Part shown: positions 6,020 to 56,910 of the stretch, piece by piece | Layout of the letters: the number at the start of each line of letters is the position of its first letter | How positions within the stretch are numbered: position 1 is the stretch's first letter | Source of the DNA: Squalus acanthias | Lineage: Eukaryota | Length of the DNA: 64,000 nt | Direction: 5' to 3' | NCBI GenBank assembly: GCA_030390025.1 | Contig: CM059432.1 | Span: forward strand, 41,666,001-41,730,000 | Notes under the pieces: generated by a model | The model's input: only the letters and a program-made list of their open reading frames with translations | What the model was told of the DNA's origin: nothing | Databases searched by the model: none | Program-made: the position numbers and the translations under genes

Positions 6020-7860
6020 AATAACTCAATATCATGAGGTTTAGAGTAGTTATGGAAAAGGACAAGGAAAAATCAAATGTGAAATTACTCAACAGGAGGA
6101 GGGCTAATTTCAGTGAGTTGAAAAGGGATCTGGTCCAGATAGATTGGCAGGTAAAACAGTCAATGAGCAATGAGAGGCCTTCAAAGAGGAGGTAGTACAG
6201 ATGCAGACTAGACACATTCCCACGAGGGGGAAAGGAGAGCATCCAAAGCTAGAGCTTCATGGATGACTAAAGATATAGAGATTAAAATGAAACAGAAAAA
6301 ATAGGCTTATGATAAATGTTGGGTTCATAATTCAGTAGAGAACCAAGCTGAATACAAGAAGTACAGGGGACAACTGAAAAAGGAAATAAGAGGGACAAAG
6401 AGAGTGTATTAGAATAGATTAGCGGCTAACATAAAAGGGAACCCAAATGTCTTTTATATACAAATAAATAGTAAAAGGGTAGTCAAAGGAAGGGTGGGGC
6501 TGATTAGGTACCAAAAAGGAGATCTTCTTGTGGAGGCAGAGGGCATGGCTGAGGTATTAAATGAATACGTTGCATCTGTCTTCACTGAAAAGGAGGATGC
6601 TGCCAATGTCACAGTAAAGGAGGAGGTAGTAGAGAAATTGGATAGGATAAAATTAGATAAAAAGGAGTACTTAAAAGGTTGGCTGTGTTCAAAGTAAAAA
6701 AAAGTCACCCAGTCTGGATGGATGCATCCTAGGTTGCTGAGGGAAGTAAGGGTGGAAATTACGGAAGCTGTGGCCACAGTCTTCCAATCCTCCTTAGCTA
6801 TGGGAGTGATCCCAGATGACTAGAGGATTGCAAATGTTACACCCCTGTTCAAAAAAGGGGAGAGGATAAACTTGGCATCTACAGGCCAGTCAGTCTAACG
6901 TCAGTGGTGGGGAAACATTCAGAGACATTAATCCGGGACAAATTAATTGGCTCTTGGAAAAAGTATGGGTTAATAAATGAAAGCAAATGTTAAATGCAAA
7001 TAGTATTTGACTAACTTGATTGAGTTCTTTTAAGAAGTAATGGAGAGGGTTGATGAGGGTAATGCAGTTGATGTATATGGACTTTCAAAAGGCGTTTGAT
7101 AAAGTACCACATAATAGACTTGTTAGCAAAATTAAAGCCCATGGGATTAAAGGGCAGTGGCTGCGTGGATACAAATTTGGCTAAGGAACAGAAAGCAGAG
7201 AGTACTGGTAAACGGTTGTTTTTCATACTGGAGGGAAGTGTGCAGTGGTGTCCCCCAGGGGTCAGTATTGGGCCCACTGCTCTTTTTGATGTATATTAAT
7301 GACCTGGACTTGGGTATACAGGGTATAATTTCGGAGTTTGCAGATGACACAAAACTCAGAAATGTAGTAAACAGTGAGGATGATCGTAACAGACTTAAGG
7401 AGGACATAGACAGACTGGTGAAATGGGCATCACATGGCAGATTAAATTTAATACTGAGAAGTGTAAAGTGATTCGTTTTGGTAGGAAGAATAAGGAGAGG
7501 CAGTATAAACTAAATGGTACAATTTTAAAGGGAGTGCAGGAACAGAGAGACACAGGGTGTATGTATACAAGAAGTTGGCAGGACAAGTTGAGATGGCTGT
7601 TAAAAAGGCATGGGGAGCCTTGGCTTTATAAATAGCGGCATAGAGTACAAAAGCAACGAAGTTATACTAAACCTTTATAAATCACTGGTTAGGCTCCAGT
7701 TGGAGCATCATGTCCAATTGAGGGCACCACACTTTAGGAAGGATGTCAAAGCCTTAGAGAGGATGCAGAGGAGATTTACTAGAATGGTACCAGGGACGAA
7801 AGACTTCAGTTACGTGGAGAGATTAGAGAAACTGGGGTTATTCTACTTACAGCAGCAAAG
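6020..7860 (+). mobile_element. CR1 LINE ORF2 remnant, 5' part (continues at 20262-20490 and 21960-22113)
   Basis: RT motifs SGVPQGSVLGPLLF, FADDTKL. Sequence resumes directly after the provirus (...cagcagcaaag | gttatagggagat...). Confidence 0.9.
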
Positions 7861-7877
7861 CTGTAACCGGTTTTTAT

Positions 7878-8838
7878 TGTAAGTGGTTTCGCCCCGCCCG
7901 TAGCGAGCACGCAAACCCCCTTACTACAAGTTCTGGACGATAGGGATTACTGAGGACAGATTTGAACACGGACAGCGTTTTCGGGCTCACCCGTACAGTG
8001 TTTATTAAGGTTGACAAAAACCACTCCACTCGCATACAGTACGAGCGGTGTGAACACAACAGTACAGTTTAAAACAGTACAAACCTGACTTGTCCAACAA
8101 GCCCCTGCCGTGCTGACTTACCACGGCCTAAGAATACCCTCCCGTGAACTAAACTATCAAAGGACCCTTCCAACGCTAAACCCCCTCTGGTTTGGTAGGA
8201 ACATACAGGCACCCCCTCACACAGCTAAGTGATCTTGTGGGTGTGTAGGCTTGGCAATGCTCACCTAGATTGCTCTTTGATCTTGCTTGCAGCTTCCTCC
8301 CGTACGTCTTGGCTACCTGGTTCGTACCGGCCTTGCGGTATGCGAGTCCCAGCCTTAGTCGAAGTCCGTCTCGGTTGGAAGAGCAAGGCTCAGCTCCTCT
8401 TGACGTTCCGTTGTGTGGAGGGCAGGAGAGAGAGAGAGAGAGAGAGCTATCCAAACTGCTCTCTAATATACCCCTCCAATACACAGACCGCTGTCTATGG
8501 TTTTAATGGACACATGGCCTCAGGGAAATGGTTTCCAGGCTTCCTCCCAGGTTTGGATGGTTTAGATCTCGTTTCGATCTCCCAGCCGATTAACATAACG
8601 AGCTCATCTTCTCCAGAAACAATGAGTCGCCAGCCTTGTTATTCAAGACTTGGGAGTGGGCCTCTCGGGCCATTGTTCCCAAGGACAGTTCGTTACCATA
8701 CGAATGCAACCTGGTTATGTGAGCCACCTTCAGCTTGAGTGCTTTTTCACTGCTTCCCCCCCAAACAGCCTGTCCAGTTTTTAATAAGGGTATATGTTCA
8801 TAATCTAAAAATCCATGGAGTCTGTGCCGACTGCTACA
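7878..8838 (-). repeat. 3' LTR of provirus
   Basis: Near-identical to 19306-20261 (about two dozen differences by eye); TG...CA ends; preceded on the minus strand by the PPT. Confidence 0.95.
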
Positions 8839-8849
8839 GGCCCCCTTTT
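8839..8849 (-). promoter_or_regulatory. Polypurine tract
   Basis: Minus strand AAAAGGGGGCC directly abuts the TGTAG start of the 3' LTR. Confidence 0.8.
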
Positions 8850-8913
8850 GATATTTCAACTTTTCCCAAACAGAAATATCATCAAAAGTTCTGTCGTCTT
8901 CCGCTGCAGGAGG

Positions 8914-11049
8914 TGTAGGGTTCTCAAAATTCCCACATTTCCCAGAGTTATTAATAAGGGGTACCCTAGACAAAATGGCTTCTAGACCTCGTGGCAGAAG
9001 CCTGCGACATTGAACAGAAACCAGGGCCCTGCAAAAACAGCAGGCCAGGTGACATGCCTGGGTCTGTAAGAGAGTTGCGAAATTCCCAGACTCCCAAAAG
9101 ACTCGGAGGAAAAGAGAGAGACCCTAAGAAAAAGGGGCTTTGGACATTTTAAAACCAATTGAGTATATTGGACCAGGGACATTTTAAAACATGCCTGGGC
9201 AGACCTCAGTACAGGCTGCCAAAGGAGGCGGGGCTGGCCTCTACAGAGACATTGGCCCAAAAATTAGACCTAATACGCGAGAGTACGCACTGTGTACTCT
9301 CGCGTTTTAGGTCTCCAATTGCCGGTTTTCAGCATGCACTGCGCATGCGTGGGAAACCGGCACTTCGTGAACTCAAAAGGGGGCGGTTCCTAAGTGAACC
9401 GCGTGCGCGCTACAGGCTGCGCGCACACAGTGCACTTAGTGCTTTGAACGCGCAGGTAAGCATGGAAGATTTTGCACATAAAGAAAGGAGGCGTAAGACC
9501 CTCTTTTAACAAGGTAAGTAGTTAATTAAGTATTATTTAAACATTTTTTCAACAGGTTTATCTTTTTTAGAGACTTTAAAGAAAGGTAAGTTTATTTTTA
9601 TAACTTTTAAAAAGATTTTTAATTTTTTCAAAAATTTAATTTTTTGTTTAAAGTGGTTAATTTATTTAACTATACTTATTTTATTAATGTGATGGCTTTT
9701 TTTTAAAATTTAATTGAGGTTTAGCTGTTCTTTTGGGGGGGTATAGATTCATAGCTTTGACATAGCTGTCAAAACTATGAATGAAAGATGGTGTGCTGCC
9801 ATTGGCTCTAACTGAATCACGTGATCCCAGAGCTCGCACGAACTAACTCCGTCTCTGGGATACGCACGCACTGCACAGCTGCAGCCTTGAAACTAAAGTT
9901 CGTGTGAGCTCGGAGGGAAAAGGTAGGCGCGCAGTGAGATATCGCGGGGAAGCCTTACCCCCGCAGGAACGCTCCGTCTTTAATTTCTGGGCCAATGTTG
10001 TATATTACAGGTGGTCGACCTGTCTGGGGAACCGGATGACCCCACTCCAGCCCATCAAACTGCTTAGCATTTATACAAAGAAGTAAAGGAATGGAGTCCT
10101 CACCAAAACTCCAGGCATGTTAGAAAAACATGAATAAAACAAGCCCAAAAGCCCAGTCTATTCATACCAAGGCCCAGTTTCGATGGCCCGAAACTCAACA
10201 CAAATGAACAACCGTCAGACCAGCAATCATCCTCCACTTAACAAATATTTAATATCGTTAAAGGCCATTCTCCTGCCATTAAAGTTAATGACCTTAACGA
10301 GCCCACCAGAATTAAACAAAGCACTGGGAAGATTTGGCGGGCAGATAAGGAACAATCCAACAGTATAACTATAGACCTGTGCTGGGACAAGAGAGGACTA
10401 CAGAGATGAGAGGCTGGGACAAGCCAGTTCTACAGAGAACAGAGATTGCAAGGCAGAGCACAGACTGGCAGTTTTGCAGACTAGCAGATTACAGCAAGGG
10501 AGCTACGGAACACGGAACAGCAAGGCCAAGCAGACTGCAGTCGACCGAAGCAAGGACGAAACCAACCGCATCAGCGGATTCGCAAAGACTGAGCCTGGAG
10601 AGCCGCTGAAGTTTTCTGCCACGTACGGATACGGCAGCTATCATCCAACACATTGAGCGAACTCCAAGACCACGACCGGCTTAATCGACAGGATTCGACC
10701 TGTCCAGAGACCCTTATTGGTGAGCATGATCCCTGGCCCCTCACAGCACACTTAGTTAGATATGGGTAAGGGGATTAAGACTGTGATTTTTCTCCCTCGA
10801 TGTGCCGTGTGTTCCCCATTCCAATTTATGTGTATTTTAGTAAGCCTGTAACTATTCCAGTAATTTTTCAGTGTTGTATCGTTCATAAAATAAATACGAT
10901 TTTCTTGTACCAAACCAGTCGTCTACTCCAATTCTGTATCGCCGCCTGTACCTAAGTCTGGTGTCTAGAACCCAGGGGTGTGGGAGCGATTCGAACTGCT
11001 CAGGAACCCAGTCAGAGGCGAGCTGACTACACACACGCTGCCCCCTACA
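8914..11049 (+). mobile_element. Solo LTR of an unrelated LTR element, inserted antisense in the provirus 3' UTR
   Basis: 7-bp terminal inverted repeat TGTAGGG...CCCTACA; 4-bp TSD GAGG (8910-8913, 11050-11053); TATAA at 10364; AATAAA at 10889. Confidence 0.8.
9253..9994. mobile_element. Non-autonomous TIR DNA transposon (MITE, PIF/Harbinger-ISL2EU-like) nested in the solo LTR
   Basis: TIRs TGGCCCAAAAATT / AATTTCTGGGCCA, AT on both flanks; homologous to 47831-49493. Confidence 0.8.
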
Positions 11050-11174
11050 GAGGCGCACTGTATCCCAACCAAACCGTACATCAAATTTTACCCCAGGGTC
11101 CTGCATCTCACACTTTATACAACAAATCACATCACAGTTACAGGTATATATACAAACAGACAGTCAACTCCGGG

Positions 11175-13503
11175 CTATTCTTTAATCAAAGCTTGCCACC
11201 AGTTTCGGAGTGTTTTACTTCGCTTTCTGCATGACAACCGGAGAAGGTAAAACACTAACACACATTGAACTATTACAATCACATGAGAAATCACACGAAT
11301 CCATGGGGGAATCTCGATATTCAGACCGATGTCCCACCATGGCGGAGAAACCAGTTCTTTTATCTCATTCCCCATTTCCCTGTTCCGTTGTTCGAGGGTA
11401 TAGAAATGCTTTTTGGGAGAGTTCAACTTCCTTTATTAATTTTGTGAGGTGTTCGGGCAGAGGAGGATTTTCATACCCGAACCGTGTTACGTATTGCTGC
11501 AGGTCCTGTACCGTGTCGTTCACCGTGAGGTGCACCGTGGTGGGCTCTGGAATGGGAATGATGCGCTCTTGAGCCACCTGAACTTCTGTGTGGGGTTTGA
11601 AGCAGAAAGTCTTATCGGTGACCGGGTACCAAGTGTCGTTGTGTACCCGGTACTGGTCCACGCTTGTCGTGATGCACTACGTCCCTCTGCCCGCATATGC
11701 TACCTGGGGTGGAATGTGGCTTTGGGCCATCACCTCCATGGTGCAATTAATGGGCTCCGCACCCTCTGATTCAAACCTGCACACCGGTCGATTAAACGCA
11801 TTCAAATGCTGGGGACATAACACCACGTGCGCGCCCCTGCTTTGGCATCCATTGAGGTCAGTGCCGGTCATGGCGTGCTCCCACTTTACAACAAACGGTG
11901 GGGCCCCATGATGTCGCATGCGCACCCCGTCCCTTAGGACGGCAATATTCTCTACTCGGTATACCGGCGCTGGCCGTGGTGACCCGCCCATTACCGGCAT
12001 CTGGAGTACAATCCCCATTACAGTGTGGTTGGACTGGCCACAGTCAACTGGGACCGGGTATGCCTCTGAGGCCAGTCGGAGTTGGCACGGGCTTATTAAA
12101 TTTTCGTACGGGCTGATCGCAGTGAGGTGCCGGTTGCTGACCCACGAAGGGACGCAACCTTGCTGTAGGTCCTCCAAATTACTGCACCCTTCGTTCAGCA
12201 GCCACGCACCGTACAACACACACGCATCGTTTTTCGCTGCCTGTGCCGAGGCATTCTGATCCTCCCTGATCAAACTATTGATCGTCTGAGCGTGTGCCTC
12301 CAACTCGGCAATGACTTCCTTTAAATGTATAGTCATAGCCTGATCTTCCCGTAACTCCGACCCCTCTAGCTCGTTACCCTCCCCCAGTATCTTTCGCAGC
12401 TGGTCCCTTAGGGTGTTGACCTGCATCTGCAACTGTACATCGTCCAAACTGTTGATAATGGACGTGCCTGTGCTGATGGCAGTAGCCGCATCATCAAATA
12501 CCCCCCGTCTATATCTCCCCGAACAATGTGATGGTTTACAGTTAAATCGTACAGACTTTCCCGATTCACGTCCCCGTAACTTAATTCATAAAATTGTCGG
12601 AACATTTCCTTCAACAGGGCCTCATAAAATGTTTCCGTTTCTACTGGACACCACCGGGGCAGCTGTACCCGGGTTAAATTTAGAATGAGCGACGTGACTT
12701 TGTAGTGAACTTCTTGGTACAAGATCTTGCCGGTCGGGACTAACACTAACCCATTCCTCGGTCCCGGTGTGGTGGCGGGGCAACTAATCTGTGTTTCCTG
12801 TACCGGTGGGGCTGTGGGCAGGGGCTTCCTCTCGTGTGCTACCAGTTCCGTGGAATTTACTGTGTTGGGAGGGTCTGGGATCACGCAGGAGTCCCCACTC
12901 TGATCCCATCCGATCCCGGCTCCGGAATCCTGCCATCACCGCAAGAAGGCGATCGACACACCCGCCGGGCAGACCCGTTCCGACCCCCACATACACACGT
13001 AAATTCCCTGTTCCTCTTTCCACCATTTGTTCCAGCACACTTCTACTCCCCCCCTCGCCCCCATAATCTGTCGGTACGTATCGTCCCTCAGTTTCTCCCA
13101 GTTCGCGGATCTGTTACCCTTGGCCTGGCCCAACTTCCTTAACCACCACCACCGTCCCAAGGGAATGTGTTCCTCACATCTTAGACAGACGCGATTTCCC
13201 CTCAGTCACCCTAACCCGTGTGGCTGTGACCTGCAGTTTGGGGCACGGTATGGAAGCTTCTCCATACGTGAAACCCTCGCTGCCGGAGTACCGAGTCGAG
13301 TTCGATCCCAGCCACCCTGGCCACCTTCTCTCGTGGAAGTAAGTGCCCATTCCGTCCATGTCCCCTGTCCTACCCCCCTGTGTCACGGTAGGCCCGTTCC
13401 CTCCTGTGCAGCCATAGAGGAAGGACACCTCGGTGTCTCCTCTTTCCATGCTGCCAGTACCGATCATCATTAGGAATAGAAGTATGATAAATTTGTTGGC
13501 CAT
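11175..13503 (-). pseudogene. env: env: signal peptide, Ig-like domain, Pro/Thr linker, furin site, fusion peptide and heptad repeat, Cys-rich region, TM; disrupted by 3 frameshifts and 2 stops
   Basis: MANKFIILLFLMMIGTGS signal peptide; RYRR|GVFDDAATAISTGTSIINSLDDVQLQMQVNTLRDQLRKIL (RYRR at 12516-12505); TM WIRVISHVIVIVQCVLVFYLL; about 776 codons in total. Confidence 0.85.
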
Positions 13504-13535
13504 ATCCCCTTGTTCCTCTGATCTCCTTTGGATCC

Positions 13536-13558
13536 CTGCCAAAACAAAAGCAAAACAG
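13536..13558 (-). promoter_or_regulatory. Splice acceptor for subgenomic env mRNA
   Basis: Minus strand CTGTTTTGCTTTTGTTTTGGCAG|GG, 32 nt upstream of the env ATG at 13503. Confidence 0.7.
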
Positions 13559-13652
13559 TTCCGCTCTGTGAGAGGGTTTTCCTCCACGGATCTGGTTTTG
13601 GTTATTTACAAAATATTTACAGTGTTCCCTGCCGCATTAACGAGCGCCCCAT

Positions 13653-16600
13653 TTAAGACCTCTCCCGTCGGGGCCTCTTGTGGCTCGCGGTCGGCGAGTA
13701 AGGAGGCGTCCACGGCACCCTAGGCCATGGGACCCGACTGCTCCTCCTTACTGCCCCGTCCTCCGAGTCATCATCGTCCCACACCAGGGGAGGAAGACCC
13801 GCGTCCACCAGGCTCATGACTGTGCCCTGGTGCCTTTTGGCCTTTGTTTTTCCCTCCTCGGGGTTAAACAACTTGCACTGGTTTACATGAAACCATTTCG
13901 TGCATTTCGGGAGTTTTACTGCATATACCATGGGGCTCGCTTTATCCACGGTATTATAAGGCCCCATGTACAGCGGCTTGAACGTCCCTACTCAGGCGTA
14001 ATTACGGACCATTACCTGGTCTCCCGTCTCCCACTCGTGGGTTCTCTGGGGTTCTAACAGCAGCTGATTTTTCTGGTGCTGGCTCCCCAGGTTACTGGCT
14101 GCCTGCCAGTGAATCCGTTTCAATGTCTCGTACAGATTCTGGACAAACCTGTCCCGGTTTACCTCCCTGACCTGCGCTTCGGTGAGGACCGGCGCCAACA
14201 CATGGGTTGGGGTGCGCATCATCCTCCCGGTCATAAGCTCGTGTGGGGAGTATCCTGTGCTTCTGGAGGGGCTGGCCCGGACACCCATTAAGACTAGAGG
14301 CAAGACCTCGTCCCATCTCTGCGGGAACAGGCTTATCTCCTTCCGCAGTCTTTCTTTCAGTGTCCGGTTCATGCGCTCCACAATCCCCGATGACTGGGGG
14401 TTGTGAGCCACATGCCACTTCCCTTGTATTCCCAAGAGTTTTAAGGTGGCCTGCATCACCTGCCCCGTGAAATGGCTCCCTTGGTCGGACTCCATGACCT
14501 GTGGCAGCCCCCACCGGGAGAACACTTCCCTCACCAGGATTCTAGCTGTTGCTAGTGCTGTGGCTGCTCAGCAGGGGAAGGCTTCCACCCACTTGGAAAA
14601 TATGTCCACCAGGACTAAACAGTACTTGTTGCCTGCTTTAGTGGTGGGCAGTGGTCCGATGAAATCGACCTGCAGGGACCGCCACGGCCACTCTACCTTC
14701 CTGGTGTGTCCTATGGGGGCTTTCCTGCGCTGCGGATCGGGGTTATTGGCTGCGTACACCAAACAGTGTGCACAGAAAACTCGGACATCCTCCCTGAGCT
14801 GGGGCCACCACCCTGCCTCCTCTACCCTTTGCCAGGTAGTTTCCGGCCCTGGGTGTCCCGCCCCCGGGCCCCCATGGGCCAACTGGAGGAACTCCTCTCG
14901 GTGCTGCGCTGGTACCCACCGATCCCCTTTGAAAAGCATTCCCTCTTTGATACTAATGTCCGCTGCCCCGAACGGACCTTCTATGGACTCCCCATTCTCT
15001 TTCTTTACCAGGACGGCCTTAAGGACGGGATCCTGGGCTTGGACCTGCTTTAAGTCCGGGGCCAAAGCTACCCCCTGTGTGCCTCCCTTGTCCCGGATTG
15101 CTGCTACCGGACCTGCTTTGTACGGATCCCAGAATACTCCTTCCCTGGCCCCCTGTTTGGCCAGCTCGTCTGCCTTTTGGTTGCCCTCCCACTTGGGCTC
15201 TGTCTTTGAATGGGCTTTAACTTTGTGAATATAGTGATCTCCCCGGGTGCCTGTGGCCTCCAAAATTTTACCTAGCAGCGGTGCTGTTGCTAGGGGCTTC
15301 CCATCTGCGGACTTGAATCCGTGCCTGGCCCAGATTGCCAAGTATTCGGTGCATGAGTTGCACGTGAACATAGGAGTCCGAGCAAATGGTGTAGGAGGTG
15401 GGGAACTCGTCGGGGTGGGTGATCATGTACGCCACCGCCGCCAGTTCGGCGTGCTGAGCGCTTAGGGTGTTGGGGAGTTTAATGGCCTTCGCTATTTTAG
15501 CCATAGGGTCATAGATTCCGCACCCGGTGAGACGCTCCCCCTTCACGACCGAACTGGACCTGTCTATATAGATGTCCCGGCCCGTCGGGTGTATCCCGGC
15601 CCGGAATCCTTCATCTACATCCCACACCCCTTCTACCGTACACGTGTGGGCCGTCCCTGGGTAAATCATGTTGGCTGCTAGCTTTGGCTCGGTCAACCCC
15701 TGCACTCGCAAGTTCATCTGCGAGAGCAATAAAGTCCAGCGAGCAATGCGAGCACTGCTCACTGTCCCGTCCTTTATTCTCCCGTCCAACAACATCTGAG
15801 TGGGGGTCTGTTGGGTGAGTAGAATTATCAGGGATGATCCCGTAAAGAGCTGTGAGCGCTTTACGGCCCAATGCGTGGCCAGGAGATGCTTCTCGCAGTT
15901 GGAATATCCCCGTTCTACCTCGGTGAGAACCCTAGATGAGTAGACCACGGACCGTAGCTTGCCATGTCGCTCCTGGAGCAGCACCACGCTCAAGCTATCC
16001 CCACTGGCTGCTACCTCTAAGAAGAATTCTTCCCCACCATTAATGGCTCCCAATGCGGGTGCCGTCTGCAAATTCTCCTTGAGGCGGGTGAACGCTTCCT
16101 GGCAGTTCTGGTCCCACTCCCACCCGACTCCCTTGTGGAGGAGCCGAAGCAGAGGGGCTGCCGTGGCTGCGTAACCCTCTATGAAGTCCCAGCAGTACCC
16201 TGTGAGTCCCAGAAAAGACCTTACCCCGGTCACATTCTTGGAGGCTGGTAGCTCCTGTACTACCTTCCTCCTAGCCTCGTCTATGGCCCTTTCACCAGCC
16301 CTTATGGTCAGCCCGAGGAATTTGACTTCCTCCTGGCCGATCTGGGCTTTCTTGGGGTTGACCTTGAACCCCGCCTCCTGCAACAGCTTTAGCAGCTCGT
16401 TCAGCAGTGGCCCGTGGTTCTCCCCCTCTGCGGAGAACTAAAGCAGGTCGTCCACGTACTGGATTAACTGGTGGGGTCGGCTGAAGCCTTTTAATGCGTC
16501 CGCCATGCATTGGTGGAATATGGAGGGGCTGTTGTGGAACCCCTGGGGAAGGCATGTTCATGTATACGCTGCCCTTTAAAAGTGAATGCAAACTTGTATT

Positions 16601-17528
16601 GCTCTTCCCGTCTGAGGGGAATCAACCAAAACCCATTGGAGATATCCAGCACCGTGAATGTGGTTGCGGTTGCTGGAATGCTCCCTATCAGATCGGCGAC
16701 AGCTGCGACTGTGGGCGCGCAAGCTGGAATGTTCTTATTGAGGACTCGATAGTCCACGGTGGCTCTCCATGACTGGTCGGGTTTCTTCACTGGCCAGAGT
16801 GGTGAGTTCACGTGGGTGGCTATTAGTCTCAACACCCCCTGTTTTACCAGGGATCCCAGTGCCGTCTCCAAGTCGGCTTCTGCCTCCCGGGGGAAACTAT
16901 ACTGCTTTTGTGGCCGTGACATGGGGTCCCCTTGCACCCGGACCTCTACCCCGGTCACCCTGCCACTATCGTGTTTATGGGTGGCGAATGCGGCGAGGTT
17001 GTCCCGTACATTCGCCTGGTACTGGGCAGGGGCGCTACTAACCAACTGTTCCAGGTCATAACTCCCTTTGGGTTTCATGGTGCATACACTACCCCCTCCT
17101 CCCTTATCTCTGGGGATCACTATCACCTCCTCTGTCTTGTCCGAGACCACTGCCCCCCACAGGCAGTGATTCCTCAGGTCCACAATGACCCGGTTGGCTA
17201 ACATGAAATCAGCCCCGAGGACTCCCCACCCTGGTTGCTCCCATTTCATTAGCACGCACTTCCACGTGGTGCGGAGGGACCCTAGCTCTGTTCTCAGGGG
17301 TTTGGACATTGCCCCCGCCTGCTCGTTCCCTGTGAATCCCATTAGGCTAAATGGGACCTTGTTAGACCAGGGTGAATTGGTCGGGTCTTCTGAATGGACC
17401 ACCGTGCTGGAAGCTCCGGTGTCCACCAAATATCTCCCCTGCACCGTCTCCACCCCCATCTTAACACAGGGCCTGTCCCACTCATCATAAGTGAGCGGAC
17501 ACAGGTACTCAGGCTGGGCGCGTTCTAG
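13653..17528 (-). pseudogene. pol: pol: protease, RT, tether, RNase H, integrase; several stops and frameshifts
   Basis: PR YLVDTGAS. RT LDISNGFW...LPQGFHNSP...QYVDDLL (YVDD 16458-16447). Tether LEVAAS...YSSRVLTEVERGYS. RNase H IYID...SAQHAEL...ICSDS...KVKAH...GNQKADELAK. IN H-H-C zinc motif, LQVDFIGPLP, SDQGSHF, SSGIVERMNRTLK, and GPY motif. Confidence 0.95.
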
Positions 17529-19205
17529 TCAGGAGGAAGGGGGACATGCAGGTGCGGTCAGCGTTATGCTGCTCACAGCAGCGTCTAGCCTTCCTTTGTC
17601 CTTCCCCAGCACCGTGCGAAGGGCGGCCACCAGATCATCAAACGGTTCATTGGTTGCCTCCTTCGCCTCAGTGACCTGGGGTTTTCGCACGGGAGGACCC
17701 CCTCGGCCTGACCCCCCCTTTTGGGCCGGGCAATCCCGCCTCCAGTGTCCCGTCTTCCCACACTTGAAAGAAGTCTTAGACTCGGGGGTGTTACCCACTT
17801 CCTGACGCCATTCCTTCCTATCCCCCTTACTGGCCTTCATCTCATGTACCCTCCCGTTGTGTTTGACCTCCTCCCCGGAACCGGCCTTAAAAGCTAAGCC
17901 CAATTTCCGGAGCACGCCTGCCTCCGTGCTCGCGAGGTCCTCAGAGTCAAACCATGCTTCTGCCTTGGCTTTATTCCGTGGCAGGCTGTTTGCTACCAGG
18001 GTCCTGAGCCAGTGATCTCTGGGGACCCCTATCAGTTGCGCGTGGTCTGGTGCACCTCCAGTTGCCTTTGCGTACATTGGCCATAGCCTGTCCGCAAATG
18101 CAGCTGGTGCCTCGCCGGCCAACTGTAGAGTCCGCTCCACTTGTGAGAACGGACTATCCTGGGTATGCCCCATGGCTCTCAGGATCTCCTCTTTCAACCC
18201 CTTTGTGGTGCCTCGCCCCACTTTTGTGGCTGCGGACAGGCTCTGATACAGTTTCCCGTCAAGGGAGAGCAGCATCAGCCTGTGGGTCTCGCCCTCACTA
18301 CGCCCGTTGATCACCCCCTACCTGCTCGACCTCCATAAAGTGAACTGAGGGGTCCCCGTCCTGTTTTAGTTTGGACAACTCTGCCACCATGGCTTGCAAC
18401 TGCGGGGTGGTGAATGGGACCACGTAATCGCTCTGCAGCGGGCCCTGGTCACCGTTTGGTGTGGGTGGACCGTACTTTTGCTGCCGCAGAGGATACATTG
18501 GTCTTGGTGGTGCTTCCGGCGCCGGTGGAACTTCCCTGTCCTGAACCTTATCCTCTGCTTCCTGACCCTCCTCGTCCCACTCCACCCGGGTTTCCCCTTG
18601 TGCCATGAAACAGACCATGCCTCTGGCCCCAGACAAGGCTTGGGTCAATTTTTAATCCTTTCTTCGCAGGGACCGTGATCAGAGTCTTCATAGCCCCTAC
18701 TTCTAGTTACCTTATGAGCTATTTTAATGTCCCTTAGCTGACCCTCCAAACCGTCAGCTCTCGTTGTTAATCTTGCGTTCTCCTCCCGTAAGGTCTGCTC
18801 ATTTAACCTGACCTCCATAACCTGGCACCGCAGGTATTCCCTCATATTACGGGAGGTCTCTTCCTGCGCGCGTCTTTCCTGTCTTTCCTCGCGCAACTCC
18901 TCCACTAGTCTACTCCCGACTATCCCCCTTGCGTCTGACTTGTCTTCAGACTTCTTCAGCTCGTTTTTGAGCTTTTCAACCTGCTCCTGCAACAGTTGAA
19001 CTTGCTTTTGGAAGCACAGGAGCCAAATCGCCTTCTCTTTGGACTTCCCGTGCTCCTTGCTCCCTGTCCACTCTGCGGCCCTATCCTGGGGACTCTCAGA
19101 GCGCAACATCTCCAGCACCCATTGCTGGGATACGTTAACCTTTTTAAACACGTAGGAGGAAATTCTGTCCTCCATTCCGGATCTCTTGCCCTCCAAACTG
19201 TCCAT
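17529..19205 (-). pseudogene. gag: gag: N-terminal coiled coil, capsid-like region, CCHC knuckle; 2 frameshifts
   Basis: Heptad-rich QVQLLQEQVEKLKNELKK...LREENARLTTRADGLEGQLRD; knuckle (S)FKCGKTGHWRRDC with the first Cys lost; ends in TGA in frame with pol. Start codon uncertain. Confidence 0.85.
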
Positions 19206-19282
19206 ATCTAATCCACAACCTATCGTCCTGCCAGCGGTCGCCAATTCTGTAACCGTTTTTTGCGGTGGCCAATTCCCTATGG

Positions 19283-19300
19283 CCCCTGCCGCAATCGCCA
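19283..19300 (-). promoter_or_regulatory. Putative primer-binding site (tRNA-Ser-like)
   Basis: TGGCGATTGCGGCAGGGG 5 nt after the 5' LTR; resembles the complement of tRNA-Ser 3' ends (TGGCG...GGCAGG), imperfectly. Confidence 0.55.
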
Positions 19301-19305
19301 ATTAT

Positions 19306-20261
19306 TGTAAGTGGTTTCGCCCCGCCCGTAGCGAGCACGCAAACCCCCTTATTACAAGTTCTGGACGATAGGGATTACTGAGGACAGATTTGAACACAGA
19401 CAGCGTTTTCGGGCTCACCTGTACAGTGTTTATTAAGGCTGACAAAAACCACTCCACTCGCATACAGTACGAGCGGTGTGAACACAACAGTACAGTTTAA
19501 AACAGTACAACCCTGACTTGTCCAACAAGCCCCTGCCGTGCTGACTTACCACGGCCTAAGAACACCCTCCCGTGAACTAAACTATCAAAGGACCCTTCCA
19601 ACGCTAAACCCCCTCTGGTTTGGTAGGAACATACAGGCACCCTCTCACACAGCTAAGTGATCTTGTGGGTATGTAGGCTTGGCAATGCTCACCTAGATTG
19701 CCCTTTGATCTTGCTTGCAGCTTCCTCCCGTACATCTTGGCTACCTGGTTCCGTACCGGCCTTGCGGTATGCGAGTCCCAGCCTTAGTCGAAGTCCGTCT
19801 CGGTTGGAAGAGCAAGGCTCAGCTCCTCTTGACGTTCCGTTGTGTGGAGGGCAGGAGAGAAAGAGAGAGCTATCCAAACTGTTCTCTAATATACCCCTCC
19901 AATACACAGACCGCTGTCTATGATTTTAATGGACACATGGCCTCAGGGAAATGGTTTCCAGGCTTCCTCCCAGGTTTGGATGGTTTAGATCTCGTTTCGA
20001 TCGCCCAGCCGATTAACTTAACGAGCTCATCTTCTCCAGAAACAATGAGTCGCCAGCCTTGTTATTTAAGACTTGGGAGTGGGCCTCTCAGGCCATTGTT
20101 CCCAAGGACAGTTCGTTACCATACGAATGCAACCTGGTTACGTGAGCCACCTTCAGCTTGAGTGCTTTTTCACTGCTTGCCCCCCAAACAGCCTGTCCAG
20201 TTTTTAATAAGGGTATATGTTCATAATCTAAAAGTCCATGGAGTCTGCGCCGACTGCTACA
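19306..20261 (-). repeat. 5' LTR of provirus
   Basis: Direct repeat of 7878-8838; minus-strand TATA-like TATATTA near 19890; AATAAA at 19434-19429. Confidence 0.95.
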
Positions 20262-22113
20262 GTTATAGGGAGATTTTATAGAGGTGCTCAAAATCTTGAA
20301 GGGTTTTGATAGAATAAATGAGAAACTGTTTCCAGTGGCAGAAGGGTCAGTTACCAGAGGACACAGATTTAAGGTAAAAAACCAGAGGTGACATGAGGAT
20401 TTTTTTTTTCAATGCAGCGTGTTGTTATGATCTGGAATGCACTGCCTGAAAGGGGGGTGGAAGCAGATTCAATAATAACTTTCAAAAAATATATTTTTTT
20501 TAAATTTGTTTATGGGATGTGGGCATCACTGGCAAGGCCAGCATTTATTGCCCATCCCTAATTGCCCTTGAGAAGGTGGTGGTGAGCCACCTTCTTGAAC
20601 CGCTGCAGTCCGTGTGGTGAAGGTACTCCCACAGTGCTGTTAGGGAGGGAGTTCCAGGATTTTGACCCAGCGACGATGAAGGATCGGCGATATACGTCTA
20701 AGTCAGGATGATGTGTGACTTGGAGGGGAACTTGGAGGTGGTGGTGTTCCCATGCACCTGCTGCCCTTGTCCTTCTAGGTGGAAAAGGTCGCGGGTTTGG
20801 GAGGTGCTGCCGAAGAAGCCTTGGCAAGTTGCTGCAGTACATCTTGTAGCCACGGTATGCCGGTGGTGGAGGAAATGAATGTTTAAGGTGGTGGATGGGG
20901 TGCTAATCAAGCGGGCTGCTTTGTCCTGGATGGTGTCGAGCTTCTTGAGTGTTGTTGGAGCTGCACACATCCAGGCAAGTGGATAGTATTCCATCACACT
21001 CCTTACTTGTGACTTGTAGATGGTGGAAAGGCTTTGGGGAGTCAGGAGGTGAGACACTCGACGCAGAATACCTAGCCTCTGACCTGCTCTTGTTGCCACA
21101 GTATTTATGTAACTGGTCCAGTTAAGTTTCTGGTCAATGGTGATCCCCCAGGATGTTGATGGTGGAGGATTCGGCAAATGTAATGCCGTTGAATGTCAAG
21201 GGGAGGTGGTTAGACTCTCGCTTGTTGGAGATAGTCATTGCCTGGCACTTCTGTGGCGCAAATGTTATCTGCCACTTATCAGCCCAAGCCTGAACGTCGT
21301 CCAGGTCTTGTTGCATGTGGGCATGGACTGCTTCATTATCTGAGGAGTTGTGAATGGCGCTGAACACTGTGCAGTCATCAGAGAACATCCCCATTTCTGA
21401 CCTTATGTTGGAGGGAAGGTCATTGATGAAGCAGCTGAAGATGGTTGGGCCTAGGACACTGCCCTGAGGAACTACTACAGCGATGTCCTGGGGCTGTGAT
21501 GATTGACCTTCAACCACCACAACCATCTTCCTTTGTGCTAGGTATGACTCCAGCCAGTGGAGCGTTTTCCTCCCGATTCTCATTGACTTCAGTTTTACTA
21601 GGGCTCCTTAATGCCACACTTGGTCAAATGCTGCCTTGATGTCAAGGGCAGTCACTCTCACCTCACCTCTGGAATTCAGCTCCTTTGTCCATGTTTGGAC
21701 CAAGGCTGTAATGAGGTCGGGAGCCGAGTGGTCTTGGCAGAACCCAAACTGGGCATCAGTGAGCAGGTTATTGGTGAGTAAGTGCTGCTTGATAGCACTG
21801 TCGATGACACCTTCCATCACTTTGCTGATGATTGAGAGTAGACTGATGAGGTGGTAATTGGCCGGGTTGGATTTGTCCTGCTTTTTGTGGACAGGGCATA
21901 CCTGGGCAGTTTTCCACATTGTCGGATAGATGCCAGTGTTGTAGCTGTACTGGAACATAACAGAATTGGATAAATACTTGAAGTGTAAAAATTTGCAGGG
22001 CTATGGGGAAAAAGCAGGGTCGTGGAACTAATTGGATAACTCTTTCAAAGAGCCAGCACAGGCATGATGGGCCAAATGGCTTCCTTCTGTACTGTATCAT
22101 TCTATGATTCTAT
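20262..22113 (+). mobile_element. 3' remainder of the CR1 split by the provirus, itself split by a family-B LINE
   Basis: CR1 3' sequence at 20262-20490 and 21960-22113, ending in an ATTCTATG tail. Confidence 0.8.
20493..21958 (-). mobile_element. CR1/L2-group LINE ('family B'), 5'-truncated
   Basis: KQDKSNPANYHLISLL, VPQGSVLGPTIF, MFSDDCTV RT motifs; poly(A)-like tail near 20493. Confidence 0.85.
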
Positions 22114-23148: not shown

Positions 23149-24800
23149 GGCCGGAATTTTCCCAGTGCCAAGCATACGGGTTTGGGGGCAGGTCGGCAAT
23201 TAAAATCGTGGAAATTGACAGCGTGTTGAGAACCTGCCGTCATCTCGCCGACTTCCGCATTTAACTCGGGCGCATTTCAAGGCACGCCACGGACCCGCTC
23301 GGGAGAGGCGGGCGACCTCATTGAGGTACTTAACTGCTTGTTGAGAGACCCTTAACTGCCTTTTTAACATCAAGTTTTGGCTTTAACTTGTTGCGCATGG
23401 GATTCATGCTCTTCAGGAACCTCGCCTGTGAAGGGGAGGCAGAAGCTCAGTGGCCATTGTACGAGTCCATTAAGAAAAATCACATAAATACTCACACATT
23501 ACACCTGCTTCCTTGCCTTATATTGCAGACATTTGTAGCTTGCTGGAGCAAGACCTGCTGCCTACAGGACCTGGTGGACACGCCTTACCAGTGGCTCACA
23601 AAGTCACCACCGTCCTCAACTTCTTCGCCTCTGGCGCCTTCCAGGGATCTGCAGCAGACATTTGCAGGATCCCGCAGTTGGCAGCCCACAGAAGCATCAC
23701 CCAGGTGACCGATGCCATGTTTCACAAGTCAGCCAATTATGCAAACTTTGCCACTGATGAAGCCAGTGTTACTGAGTGGGCACTCGGATTTGCGGCTCTG
23801 GCTGGCTTCCCACAGGTGCAGGGCATCATCGACTGCATACATGTGGCCATCAAGGCACTCCCACATCACCCAGGGGTGTTTGTGAACAGCAAGGGCTTCC
23901 ACTCCCTCAATGTGCAGCTCGTCTACAACCATAAAAAGATCATCATGCATGTGTGTGCCAGATCCCTGGCAGCTGTCATGACTCTTTTGTGCTGCGCCAG
24001 TCCACCCTCCCTCAGCTCTTCGCACCTCCAAACAGACTTACCAGCTGGCTGCTTGGAGACAAGGGCTATCCACTGAAGACGTGGCTGATGACACCCTTGA
24101 GGAGGCCAAGTAATGAGGCTGAGGAGCGTGATAATGACAGTCACATGTCCACCAGATGTGTCATAGAGCAAGCAATCGGCATGATGAAGATGCGCTTCAG
24201 ATGCCTTGACAGATCTGGAGGAGCCCTTCAGTACACATCAGCCAGGGTCTCCAGAATCATCATCGTATGCTGCGCGCTGCACAACATAGCGCAGCAGTGA
24301 GGTTTGGTGGTGCAGGAGGAGCAAGGCACAGAGCACACAGCCTCTTCGGAGGAGGAGGAACAGGTGGAACATGAGGAGGAGGGACAGGTGGAACACGAGG
24401 AGGAGGAGGAACCTGAGGTGGAGGTGGCACCAGCAGCGGCGCACATTGCTGCCCGGGAGGTCTGGGATGGCCTCATAATGGGCAGATTTACTTAACTTGC
24501 ACCAGTGCACCCATACGGCTGCCAGATGCTGTACTAACCCACCCCCACCCACCCCCGCAACAACACCACAAAGCAGTCCTACAATGACCAAGCCATTCCT
24601 CTCACCCAAATCCCCATTGCTCGAGGTTAAGTAATGTCTCACCATTCACTCAGTGATAAAGCCACTTCCCAGGTAGCAGACAAAAATGGACAAGACGGGA
24701 AAGTGGTGTAAAGAAAGAAATTTATGTGAGTCATAAATATAACTGAAACTTAACATATCCTTGTGCATCTAGGATTGTGTCTTTTTTCATTTACGCATGC
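23149..24800 (+). mobile_element. Truncated PIF/Harbinger transposon with frameshifted HARBI1-like transposase (about 23513-24495)
   Basis: Left TIR GGCCGGAATTTT; motifs [59 protein letters not shown]. Confidence 0.9.
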
Positions 24801-36038: not shown

Positions 36039-38328
36039 TCATCCTCACCAAGCTACCTGTCGCAGATGCATCTGTCCATGACAGCATTGGTAGCAGTGAC
36101 CACCGCACAGTCATTGTGGAGACAAAGTCCCGTCTTCACACTGAGGACACCCATCATCATGTTGTGTGGCATTACCACCGTGCTAAATGGGATAGATTCA
36201 GAACAGATCTAGCAACTCAAAACTGGGCATCCATGAGGCGCTGTGGACCATCAGCAGCAGCAGAATTGTATTCCACCACAATCTGTAACCTCATGGCCTG
36301 GAATATCCCTCACTCTACCATTACCATCAACCCTGGTTCAATAAGGAGTGTAGAAGAGCATGCCAGGAGCAGCACCAGGCGTACCTAAAAATGAGGTGCC
36401 AACCTGAGGAAACTGCAACACAGGACTACATGCATGCTAAAAAGCGGAAGCAGCATACTATAGACAGAGCTAAGCGATCCCACATTCAACGGATCAGATC
36501 AAAGCTCTGCAGTCCTGCCACATCCAGTCGTGAATGGTGGTGGACCATTAATCAACTAAGGGGAGGAGGAGGCTCCATGAATATCCCCATCCTCAATGAT
36601 GGTGGGGCCCAGCATGTGAGTGCAAAAGGCAAGGCTGAAGTGTTTGCAACCATCTTCAGCCAGAAGTGCCGAGTGGATGATCCATATCGTCCTCCTCCTG
36701 AGGTCACCACCACCACAGAAGCCAGTCTTCAGCCAATTCGATTCACTCCATGTGATATCAAGAAACAGTTGAGCGCACTGGATACAGCAAATGTTATGGG
36801 CCCCGACAACATCCCGGCTGTCGTGCTGAAGACTTGTGCTCTAGAACTAGCCGCGCCTCTAGCCAAGCTGTTCCAGTACAGCTACAACACTGGCATCTAT
36901 CCGACAGTGTGGAAGACTACCCAGGAATGTCCTGTCCATAAAAAGCAGGACAAATCCAATCCGGCCAATTACCGCCCCATCAGTCTACTCTCAGTCATCA
37001 GCAAAGTGATGGAAGGTGTCGTCGACAGTGCTATCAAGCAGCACTTACTCACCAATAACCTGCTCACTGATGCCCAGTTTGGGTTCCGCCAGGACCACTC
37101 GTCTCCAGACCTCATTACAGCCTTGGTCCAAACATGGATGAAAGAGCTGAATTCCAGAGGTGAGGTGAGAGTGACTGCCCTTGACATCAAGGCAGCATTT
37201 GACCGAGTGTGGCAGCAAGGAGTCCTAGTAAAACTGAAGTCAATAGGAATTGGGGGGGAAACTCTCCACTGGCTGGAGTCATGCCGTGCACAAAGGAAGA
37301 TGGTTGTGGTGGTTGGAGGTCAATCATCACAGCCCCAGGACATTGCTGCAGGAGTTCCTCAGGGCAGTGTCCTAGGCCCAACTATCTTCAGCTGTTTTAT
37401 CAATGGCCTTCCATCCAACATAAGGTCAGAAATGGGGATGTTCGCTGATGAATGCACAGTGTTCAGTGCCATTCACAACTCCTCAGATAATGAAGCAGTC
37501 CATGCCCACATGCAACAAGACCTGGACGACATTCAGGCTTGGGCTGATAAGTGGCAGGTAACTTTCGCGCCACACAAGTGCCAGGCAATCACTATCTCCA
37601 ACAAGTGAGAGTCTAACTACCGCCTTTGACATTCAACGGCATTACCATCGCTGAATCCCCCACCATCAACATGCTGGGGGTCACCATTGACCAGAAACTT
37701 AACTGGGCCAGCCACATAAATACTGTGGCAACAAGAGCAGGTCAGAGGCTAGGTATTCCGCAGCAAGTGTCTCACCTCCTGACTCCCCAAAGCCTTTCCA
37801 CCATCTACAAGGCACAAGTAAGGAGTGTGATGGAATACTCTCCACTTGCCTGGATGAGTGCAGCTCCAACAACACTCATGAAGCTCGACACCATCCAAGA
37901 CAAAGCAGCCCGCTTGATTGGCACCCCATCCACCACCTTAAACATTCACATACCGTGGCTGCAATGTGTACCATCTACAAGATGCACTGCAGCAACTCGC
38001 CAAGGCTTCTTTGGCAGCACCTCCCAAACCCTGCGACCTCTACCACCTAGAAGGACAAGGGCAGCAGGCACATGGGAACACCACCACCTCCAAGTTCCCC
38101 TCCAAGTCACACACCATACTGATTTGGAAGTATATCACCGTTCCTTCATCGTCGCTGGGTCAAAATCCTGGAACTCCCTCGCTAACAGCACTGTGGGAGC
38201 ACCTTCACCACACGGACTGCAGCAGTTCAAGAAGGCAGCTCACCACCACCTTCTGAAGGGCAATTAGGGATGGGTAATAAATGCTGGCCATGCCAGCGAC
38301 GCCCAGATCCAATGAACGAATAAAAAAA
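36039..38328 (+). mobile_element. CR1/L2-group LINE ('family B') with long RT ORF, nested in CR1
   Basis: 405-aa ORF 36391-37608 with NYRPISLLS, QFGFR, LDIKAAFD, GVPQGSVLGP, FADE; A-tail; AAATCC TSD. Confidence 0.9.
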
Positions 38329-41096: not shown

Positions 41097-42490
41097 TTCT
41101 TCTTCTCCTTAGGCAGTCCCTCGGAACCGAGGATGACTTGCTTCCACACTAAAAATGAGTTCTCAGGTGACTGATGAGTCCAATGCGGGACCTACAGTCT
41201 CTGTCACAGGTGGGGCAGACGGTGGTTGAAGGGGCGGGTGGGTGGGGTGCTTGGGTTGACATGCGCTTGGCTTCCGTTTGCTCCCGGTGAAGAGACTCGA
41301 GGTGTTCGACGCCTTCCCGGATGCTTCTCCTCCACTTTGTGCGGTCTTGGGCCAGGGATTCCCAGGTGTCGATGGGGATGTTGCACTTTTTCAAGGAGGC
41401 TTTGAGGGTGTCCTTGAAGCGTTTCCTCTGCCCACCTGGGGCTCTCTTGCCATGTCGGAGCTCCGAGTAGAGCGCTTGCTTTGGGAGTCTCATATCGGGC
41501 ATGCAGACGATGTGGCCTGTCCATCGGAGCTGATCGAGCATGGTCAAAGCTTTGATGCTGGGGATGTTAACCTGAGCAAGAACACTGATGTTGGTGCGCC
41601 TATCCTGCCAATGGATTTGCAGGATCTTGCGGAGGCAGCGTTGGTGGTACCTCGCCAGTGCTTTGAGGTGCCTGCTGTACATGGTCCATGTCTCTGAAGC
41701 ATACAGGAGGGCGGGTATCACTACTGCTCTGTAGACCATGAGCTTGGTGCTGGGTTTGAGGTCCTGGTCTTCAAACACTCTCTTCCTCAGGTGACCGAAG
41801 GCTGCACTGGCACACTGAAGGCGGTGTTGGACTTCGTCATCGACGTCTGCCCTTGTTGACAGTAGGCTCCCGAGGTATGGAAAGTGGTCCACGTTGTCCA
41901 AGGCCTTGTCGTGGAGTCTGGTAATTGGGAAGCAGTACTGTGTGGCGGGGGCAGGTTGGTAGAGGACCTTTGTCTTACGGATGTTTAGTGTAAGGCCCAT
42001 GTTCTCGTATGCTTCAGTGAAGGTGTTGACGATGGTTTGGAGTTCGACCTCAGAGTGTCCGCAGACGCAAGCGTCGTCTGCATACTGTAATTTGATGACA
42101 GAGGATGGGACGACCTTGGATCTGGACTGGTGGCAACAGAGGTTGAACAGTTTCCCATTTGTTCTGTAAATTAGCCCCACTTCAGCGGGAAGCTTACTGA
42201 GGGTGAGATGGAGCATTGCAGCCAGGAAGATCGAGAAGAGCATTGGTGCGATGATACAGCCTTGCTTGACCCCGGTCCGTACGTGAATTGGGTCTGTGGT
42301 GGATCCGTTGGTCAGGATGACGGCTTACATCTCGTCGTGAAGCAGGCGGAGGATGGTGACAAACTTTTGAGGGCAGCCGAATTTGAGGTCACTCCATAAT
42401 CCCTCACGGTTGACAGTGTCGAAGGCCTTCGTGAGATGAAAGAAGGCCAGGTACAGCGGTTGGTGCTGTTCCCTGCATTCCTCTTGTAGT
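41097..42490 (-). mobile_element. RTE-clade LINE, 3' half of RT
   Basis: 364-aa ORF with QYADD, FPYLGS and C-terminal CPTCDRDCRSRIGLISHLRTH; (GAA)n tail. Confidence 0.9.
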
Positions 42491-47283: not shown

Positions 47284-47830
47284 TTGTACCCCTGCCACAC
47301 AATAGAAGTGGATACTTTTCAAAGGCAAACTGATTGATTCAATGGGCCTGTCAAACAATGTAACAATGAAATGCACGATGCAAGTGTGCCCTGAAGGCTG
47401 GGAGTTGTGACAGAAATCTCGTGTGGTTGCTTGGTAGGAGTTTGCCGTATAAAAGTTCAATGCACCTGTAACCTTCACAGCCACTGACAGCCTGTCCTGG
47501 AAGTTTTTCTCTAGTCTGGCTGCAGGAGTGTGCATAGTTTTGTTATTGCCATCTTCAGGAATACTAGTGGTTTCAGACAAATGTAGATACAAGAATCTAA
47601 TCATGTACACATGGGCAGATGGATTCAAATGGAATGTCAGTATATATTCTATAATTCTGCTGCTACTCTATTACCTGCAAATAGAGAGGTTTCTCCATCG
47701 GGATAGCTCATTGTAAGTCAGTACACCATTTACTGGACAAAAAATTCAGATGCATATACAGTACAGATTTAAGAAGCTATCAGGAAATCTCTAAGAAATG
47801 TCCCTATCTTCCTTTGTCCAACCATATCAT

Positions 47831-56400: not shown

Positions 56401-56910
56401 TAAAATTCTATCATATTATGGTCACTCTTCCCTAAAGGCCCCTTTACTACAAGGTTATTAATTAAGCCTTTCTCATTGCACAATACTAGATCTAAAATAG
56501 CATGTTCCCTAGTTGTTTCCTCAACATACTGATCTAGAAAACTATCTTGCATACATTCCATGAATTCGTCCTCCACACTATTACTGCAAATTTGGTTTGC
56601 CCAGTCCATATGTAAATTAAAGTCCCCCATGATCACTTTATTACCCTTGTTACATGCGCCTCTAATTTTCTGATTTATACTCTGCCCTACATTACAACTA
56701 CTGTTTGGGGGCCTATAAACAAATCCCACCAATGTTTTCTGCCCCTTGCTGTTTCTTAGCTCTACCCAAACTGATTCTACTTCTTGATTTTCGGAGCTAA
56801 GATCCTTTCTCTCTACTGTCTTTATCACATCCTTTATTATCAGGGCTACCCCTCCTCCTTTTCCATTTTGCCTATCTCTTCTAAAACTTGAGTATCCTGG
56901 AATATTCTTC
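53417..56910 (-). mobile_element. CR1 LINE ORF2 (endonuclease plus RT)
   Basis: VYRPPNS, MGDFN, SDHNMI; YLDFQKAFDKVP, SGVPQGSVLGP; RNFFTQRVVNLWNSLPQ. Confidence 0.9.
55121..55893. mobile_element. Harbinger-type MITE nested in CR1
   Basis: Perfect 13-bp TIR GGGCTGGATTTTG / CAAAATCCAGCCC. Confidence 0.8.

Follow-up and report, generated by a model that had tools for sequence, protein, structure and literature searches.

The mode of Pol expression, whether UAG readthrough, frameshifting or splicing, helps to classify retroviruses, and gag-pol readthrough at UAG defines the gamma- and epsilonretroviruses. In MoMLV and WDSV, an in-frame stop between NC and protease serves this purpose, in the form of UAG-GGN with an H-type pseudoknot. 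An in-frame UGA has also been described at the junction. According to the available sections of a 2026 review, SSSV (UGAAGA), ZFERV (UGACGA) and the cane toad ERV (UGAAGU) carry one, and snakehead retrovirus (SnRV) has UAG-GGC (PMC13517186). The class III element XtERV-S has a TGA between gag and pol, for which suppression was proposed (PMC8278194), and Tca2 likewise has an in-frame UGA there (PMC2194720).

The type II readthrough context UGA-CUA(G) is known from other systems. Its recorded hosts so far are alphaviruses, a dicistrovirus, giant viruses and vertebrate genes. In the same sections of the review, UGACUA is given among animal viruses for alphaviruses and PSIV only (PMC13517186). At the alphavirus nsP3/nsP4 junction and in OPRL1, OPRK1, AQP4, MAPK10 and MDH1, the frame is open on both sides of the stop. 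This leaky context is conserved across vertebrates (PMC4132726, PMC13517186). It is leaky in reporters, where deletion of CUAG nearly abolishes readthrough (PMC4132726); in human genes UGA-CUAG alone gives at least about 1.3% readthrough, and UGA-CUA may function without structure (PMC13517186). In the open-access literature we found no description of UGA-CUA at a retroviral gag-pol junction, and "lokiretrovirus" combined with "readthrough" gave 0 matches. An in-frame UGA between gag and pol has thus been published before, and only its CUA(G) context there appears to be unreported. A preliminary description of the locus analyzed here had called UGA-CUAG suppression an unusual strategy for a retrovirus-like element. 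Put in that way the view lacks support, given the in-frame UGA of SSSV, ZFERV, the cane toad ERV, XtERV-S and Tca2.

The gag-pol junction and the element that carries it

The window, a 64,000-nt stretch of Squalus acanthias DNA (contig CM059432.1, positions 41,666,001 to 41,730,000), contains a full-length endogenous retrovirus (ERV) of the Retroviridae on the minus strand, at about 7862-20261. All of its features given below lie on that strand. The order is gag, protease, RT, tether, RNase H, integrase and an env in pieces. The gag gene (17529-19205) is broken near 18647 and 18368-18318; its N-terminal part is coiled-coil-like, and its single zinc knuckle, near 17770-17730, bears a private change of this copy. 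The long coiled-coil-like stretch at the Gag start (19205-18648) recalls the smc-like part of Loki Gag, with sub-threshold Pfam matches only. The pro-pol region, from protease to integrase (13653-17528), is broken near 16560, 16440, 15372, 14570 and 13994. The env pieces (11175-13503) include an RYRR site and resemble Env of the paramyxovirus-F type or of lokiretroviruses, a resemblance that serves as a lead only. Just before the env ATG lies a T-rich splice-acceptor-like site (13536-13558), which ranked fourth by pyrimidine share and had the highest T share of the top 15.

The 5' LTR (19248-20261, TG...CA) carries a TATA-like sequence at 19893, AATAAA at 19434 and donor-like sites at 19549 and 19418. 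A PBS-like TGGCG... stretch, recognized from sequence, follows at 19226-19243, and a purine tract (8839-8860) stands ahead of the 3' LTR (7862-8838). The LTRs are 97.2% alike over 967 columns, with 20 mismatches and 3 gaps. The end of the 5' LTR (19301-19248, compared with 7878-7862) has about 40 extra nt that are absent from the 3' LTR, including a second TGGCG PBS-like start at 19300. The positions of the TATA-like sequence, the GTAAGT donor-like site at 19549 and AATAAA imply a long R with a splice donor inside the LTR, an arrangement described for foamy viruses and XtERV-S. No target-site duplication was visible at 7850-7861 and 20262-20275, and by eye the flanks looked like halves of one LINE tail. 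The stretch of about 2.3 kb between env and the 3' LTR (8860-11170) may be a nested insertion or an accessory region: it contains host repeats at 9250-9838, which match 47828-49363, and, near 10030-11060, another LTR-like block that carries signals of the AATAAA type. Elsewhere the window holds pieces of LINE RT and endonuclease and a weak DDE_Tnp_4 match (36289-37605, 41152-42324, 56160-56924, 23474-24073), and an inverted copy of 23541-24382, 74% alike, lies at 62204-63045.

The copy itself is dead. Further stops stand at 18647, 18368, 18320, 16440, 14570 and 13994, accompanied by several frameshifts. The RT stop at 16440 is TAG, and the two integrase stops (14570 and 13994) are in-frame TGA, as at the junction. 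Because of this decay, a single copy was insufficient to settle the origin of the junction stop, and because the two integrase stops are TGA too, decay had to be tested against relatives.

The junction, for which the preliminary description gave no strand, lies on the minus strand. TCC is followed by the gag stop codon TGA (17531-17529) and then by CTAG (17528-17525), which is both the type II readthrough motif (PMC4132726, PMC13517186) and a YAG. Translation of 18317-16491 gave ...TLTAPACPPSS before the stop and LERAQPEYLCPLTYDEWDRP...YLVDTGAS after it, with one stop and zero frameshifts. After the TGA, the frame continues as CTA GAA CGC and stays open through DTGAS into RT. This confirmed the earlier account that gag ends TCC TGA CTA GAA and runs on in frame into the protease, and the two cited sources bore out its statement that UGA-CUA(G) is an established leaky context. 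Pfam placed zf-CCHC in the piece before the stop (18317-17532, E 6e-6), and RVP and RVT_1 in the piece after it (17528-16494). The locus therefore has the in-frame UGA between two coding regions that marks type II sites, and one of their 3' contexts, CUA(G) or CGG. The internal region, 10,391 nt long, contains a single TGACTAG. Within the five unbroken pieces of the copy, CTA makes up 18 of 1,375 codons (1.3%) and 18 of 132 Leu codons, and it follows none of the 6 other tabulated stops.

The stop in related copies and published elements

Part of the stretch was found in 20 of the 24 sequencing runs listed, from 9 studies. In four runs, from four organisms and four studies, 170, 292, 803 and 132 contigs aligned to 17360-17810 at 80% likeness. 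They gave 185 difference rows in all, and the results rest on the best-supported 40. Changes private to this copy reached, or came close to, 100% of depth in their rows (17550, 17577, 17635 and 17770). Among the best 40 of 185, no variant row fell at 17525-17531, and none across 17506-17531. The codons just 5' of the stop were covered and variable, at 17534 and 17535 (depth 662, 248, 2552 and 53). The blank stretch alone is without significance (P 0.54 for 7 nt and P 0.09 for 26 nt). Contigs lose rare variants, and minority variants at the stop could sit among the remaining 145 of 185 rows. Contig depth was high at 17472-17535, though contig depth is not copy number. Since a private change would give a near-100% row and none appeared at 17506-17531 among the best 40 of 185, most relatives, as far as their contigs tell, lack a sense codon at the stop. 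The comparison thus supports a stop that is common to relatives in both presence and place, rather than a private CpG change.

More divergent families also seemed to switch at this point. Loose ends lay directly behind 17531 (7 contigs of run X1 and 1 of run X17) and 17533 (7 contigs of run X4); in these families the protease side matched up to the stop and was followed by unrelated gag tails. Their letters at the stop are read from alignment end points, and no in-frame stop occurred within the 30 letters of tail given. One X4 contig kept TGA and had a second TGA at the CTA position. As for CUA(G), no variant was found among the rows listed in the four runs, and this X4 contig differed, as did both CmiERV elements described below. 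The proposed check on TGACTAG conservation thus came out in favor of the stop, with these departures from CTA. No confirmed related locus was found in viral contigs or metagenome contigs, and the Gag C-terminal piece had 0 matches in longer proteins among 7,686 candidates.

Published elements carry comparable junctions. In the CmiERV lineage I of Callorhinchus milii, which in the available part of the source clusters with snakehead retrovirus (PMC4422223), scaffold 2 has a CCHC box and then TGA-CAT, in frame with LCVPFEKYEGPRPFISMK...LVDSG. By eye, the window protease N-terminus, LCPLTYDEWDRPCVKMG...LVDTG, is close to this counterpart, and the CCHC box, in-frame stop, tether and integrase end are also alike, but the junction reads TGA-CAT and the env start looks unlike that of the window. 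In scaffold 324, from lineage II, the junction is TGA-CTC, in frame by eye.

The lokiretroviruses, a separate lineage, were examined by eye in the supplement of PMC7947760. The junction is TGA-CTA-GGC in Loki-Ofa, -Cne and -Sau, TGA-CTA-GGA in Loki-Pyo, TGA-CTA-AGC in Loki-Bsp and CGA-CTA-AGC in Loki-Pfl. TGA-CTA is therefore present in 5 and CTA in all 6 of the junctions examined, out of 24, and all six are in frame with the protease N-terminus, with differing flanking residues. The six are mutually related and count as about one case. A 7-mer search of the supplement found TGACTAG at gag-pol junctions in 4 of 17 places among the matches listed; line breaks hide motifs from such a search, which missed Bsp. 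The annotation gives gag-pol as a single ORF in 10 of the 24 Loki consensus records, and pol records start at a later TTG or CTG (PMC7947760). In the main text of that paper, as far as available, "readthrough", "stop codon", "frameshift" and "suppression" are absent, and TGA-CTA goes unremarked.

These comparisons bear on an alternative in which gag and pol of the active element were fused into one ORF by a sense codon, the TGA having arisen by repeated CpG decay in many copies. In its favor, integrase in this copy carries two nonsense changes to TGA, the homologous codon of Loki-Pfl is CGA, and the Loki records annotated as a single ORF would fit a fused arrangement. However, a sense codon in most relatives would give a near-100% row like those at 17550 and 17577, and there was none among the best 40 of 185. 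The preliminary description had named CGA or another sense codon in other copies as a finding against its proposal, and no such majority variant was seen among these rows. CpG decay also leaves CTA unexplained, a 1.3% codon here that nevertheless follows the stop in the window and stands in 6 of 6 Loki junctions, and it does not account for CmiERV lineage I having an in-frame TGA at the corresponding position. Opal-to-sense variants, moreover, occur also at real alphavirus readthrough sites (PMC13517186, available sections), to which Loki-Pfl may be compared. On these sequence comparisons, CpG decay appears largely refuted, and we regard it as highly improbable.

Routes to Pol

No ATG occurs between the gag stop and 17459, although the LxPL...GRP stretch located there is conserved protease. 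Ahead of the first in-frame ATG, 23 codons follow the stop (17460-17528); they encode the N-terminal LCPL...RP of the protease, which is common to relatives, as judged from 11 aligned N-termini and, by eye, from CmiERV lineage I. Retroviral proteases require the N-terminal strand for dimerization. The ATG itself (17457-17459) has a good start context (AAGATGG), with the catalytic Asp 12 residues further on.

Pol is most likely made by readthrough, because the stop is common to relatives, the type II motif follows it, and the protease residues ahead of the ATG are conserved. We consider it very probable, on the sequence and by analogy, that the TGA is a genuine gag terminator and that programmed type II (UGA-CUA) readthrough makes Gag-Pol; the feature is real and was probably functional in the ancestral virus. 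On unspliced RNA, most ribosomes would stop at the UGA and release Gag. A few percent would decode the UGA by a near-cognate tRNA and continue into protease-RT-RNase H-integrase, so that the leak at the UGA would set the Gag:Gag-Pol ratio. The occurrence and level of readthrough, and any help from a hairpin downstream, we infer from the analogy with characterized sites. As in MoMLV and WDSV, an in-frame stop would serve here between NC and protease, with UGA-CUAG in place of UAG-GGN and a pseudoknot. SSSV, ZFERV, the cane toad ERV and XtERV-S share the in-frame UGA and the presumed suppression, but here the context is CUAG and the lineages differ. As in alphaviruses, the polymerase lies downstream of the UGA. 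Unlike the alphavirus and vertebrate type II sites, this one is a retroviral gag-pol junction, and it lacks a supported stem 8-12 nt after the stop.

A 14-bp hairpin was predicted at 17472-17505, starting 23 nt after the stop, with pair probabilities of 0.8-1.0 at four window lengths. Its z value was -1.3 to -1.9, and it ranked 29th of 227 windows. Folding of about 150 nt downstream, which the preliminary description had recommended, gave nothing better than shuffled sequences (z -1.67 for 152 nt), and for 70 nt 114 of 1,000 shuffles were as stable. Downstream structure was therefore rejected as evidence for readthrough. Hairpin variants accounted for 6 of the 40 rows listed, compared with 3 expected; three were in the loop, two kept the pair and one broke an end pair. 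A weak 5-bp stem at +8, in the 8-12 nt region where a stem is optional for CUA, was unstable across window lengths. Two 60-nt windows spanning the stop (17560-17481) ranked 225 and 227 of 227, among the least structured, an observation made post hoc.

The CTAG could also be a 3' splice site. In that case a foamy-style spliced pol RNA would join a donor in the LTR R or leader to 17524, and translation would start in the upstream exon or at the ATG at 17459. This reading had not been considered in the preliminary description. Among 126 clean YAG sites (from 812 AGs), CTAG ranked first by pyrimidine share (0.84), in a scan that was crude and used no trained splice model. It is preceded by a C-rich pyrimidine tract with a branch-point-like CTGAC (17532-17563), 33 nt 5' of the site. 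There are donor-like sites at 19549, 19418 and 18710, and the first ATG is in a strong context. The relative P0001 and CmiERV lineage I likewise have a Met 12 residues ahead of the catalytic Asp, and in several more distant relatives a Met is annotated directly ahead of the protease N-terminus. The tract, however, is rich in C, with a T share of 0.32 compared with 0.68 at the env acceptor, which follows from Pro and Ser codons. It varies in relatives at 17534, 17535, 17541 and 17550, and the T of the branch-like CTGAC (17560) differs in most of the depth of the four runs. The tails of the X1 and X17 families contain AG and are richer in purine, and both CmiERVs keep an in-frame TGA-C without an AG there. 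Splicing would need no shared gag and pol frame, and a start at 17459 would lose the conserved protease N-terminus. We therefore hold splicing at CTAG to be very unlikely, and the proposal of Pol expression by UGA-CUAG suppression stands as very probable.

The remaining routes accept the stop as real and bypass it otherwise, by reinitiation or an internal start at 17459, by an internal promoter, or by a frameshift near the gag end. The strong-context ATG lies 24 codons on from the stop, and one slippery-like heptamer, CCCAAAA, was found at 17725. Tca2 also offers a precedent that an in-frame UGA junction need not itself direct readthrough (PMC2194720, available part). But gag and pol are in one frame, which a -1 shift would leave, and an internal start would lose the conserved protease N-terminus. 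None of reinitiation, an internal promoter or a frameshift accounts for the CUAG, and such a bypass seems very unlikely.

Lineage of the element and the distribution of type II junctions

The best protein matches were a Logan protein (63%) and, at 38-42%, "NYNRIN-like" models from frog and coelacanth, and related pieces were also present in a Mustelus gene model. In an RT-tether tree of 44 rows, both window pieces grouped with P0001 (100/100) and fell on the retrovirus side; Gypsy (100/100) and the rows of gamma/epsilon type (100/100) stood apart from them. The window, SnRV (P0072), and the frog and coelacanth elements shared one open fork. The rows exclude Loki, foamy viruses and ERV-L, and one row labelled gypsy fell with epsilon-like rows. 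P0072 matched the published SnRV row, and when RT motifs were used to match relatives with the named FLERV rows, SnRV alone was recovered; its RT-tether was 35% identical to that of P0001, the closest relative. By this sequence comparison, the element appears to fall in the snakehead-retrovirus grade. SnRV, namesake of the SnRV-like clade (clade Huo, CmiERV lineage I), shares the tree fork with the window pieces, but its own junction is UAG-GGC.

Other assignments were rejected. A lokiretrovirus had been the first guess, and the Loki elements Ofa, Cne, Pyo, Sau, Bsp and Pfl have a dual RNase H in common with the element here and an Env that is alike by eye. Their RT motifs and protease are unlike those of the window, where RT reads LPQG, APTV and YVDD, compared by eye with PFGY and SRWP/SGWP in about 24 Loki rows. 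In the available part of PMC7947760, Loki was present in 0 of 3 Orectolobiformes genomes. For a gamma- or epsilonretrovirus, the RT lies outside their clade and the UAG-G context is absent. For Spumaretrovirinae or a fish foamy-like virus, the Gag has a Cys-His box (zf-CCHC), which foamy Gag lacks (PMC5210030, available part), and gag and pol share a frame without an ATG before the protease N-terminus, whereas foamy Pol has its own start in another frame (PMC8278194, available part).

The env piece at 12585-11680 scored 0.93 in the atlas to an F0 cluster in which 47% of members carry PF00523, the Mononegavirales F family, with recognition below threshold. Env had no Pfam match and no PDB sequence match, and the single-sequence AlphaFold model had a pLDDT of 37. 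Capture of an Env, or an F-type Env shared in the SnRV grade, with a non-Loki Pol, is possible.

Frog models named "protein NYNRIN-like" (P0002, P0004, P0005 and P0054) are ERV Pol sequences in which the protease active site comes only one or a few residues after the start. A late start of this kind would be expected had an upstream stop or splice been overlooked. Annotation treats such junction stops as the end of a gene or as decay and places the Pol start at a later ATG or TTG, which clips the protease, as in P0001, the frog models and Loki pol.

Lokiretroviruses are the sister group of all retroviruses. Taken with the SnRV-grade family in the window, the Loki subgroup suggests that type II UGA-CUA(G) may be a recurrent and overlooked Gag-Pol route in aquatic retroviruses, which would have arisen independently or come by deep descent, with switches to a fused ORF. 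Three Loki elements carry the strongest known context, UGA-CUA-GGC. We lean slightly towards this view. If it is true, UGA-CUAG would add a pseudoknot-free mode to the known ways of Pol expression, one that borrows the leak of vertebrate cells' own genes, and its presence in two distant lineages would bear on the ancestral mode of Pol expression.
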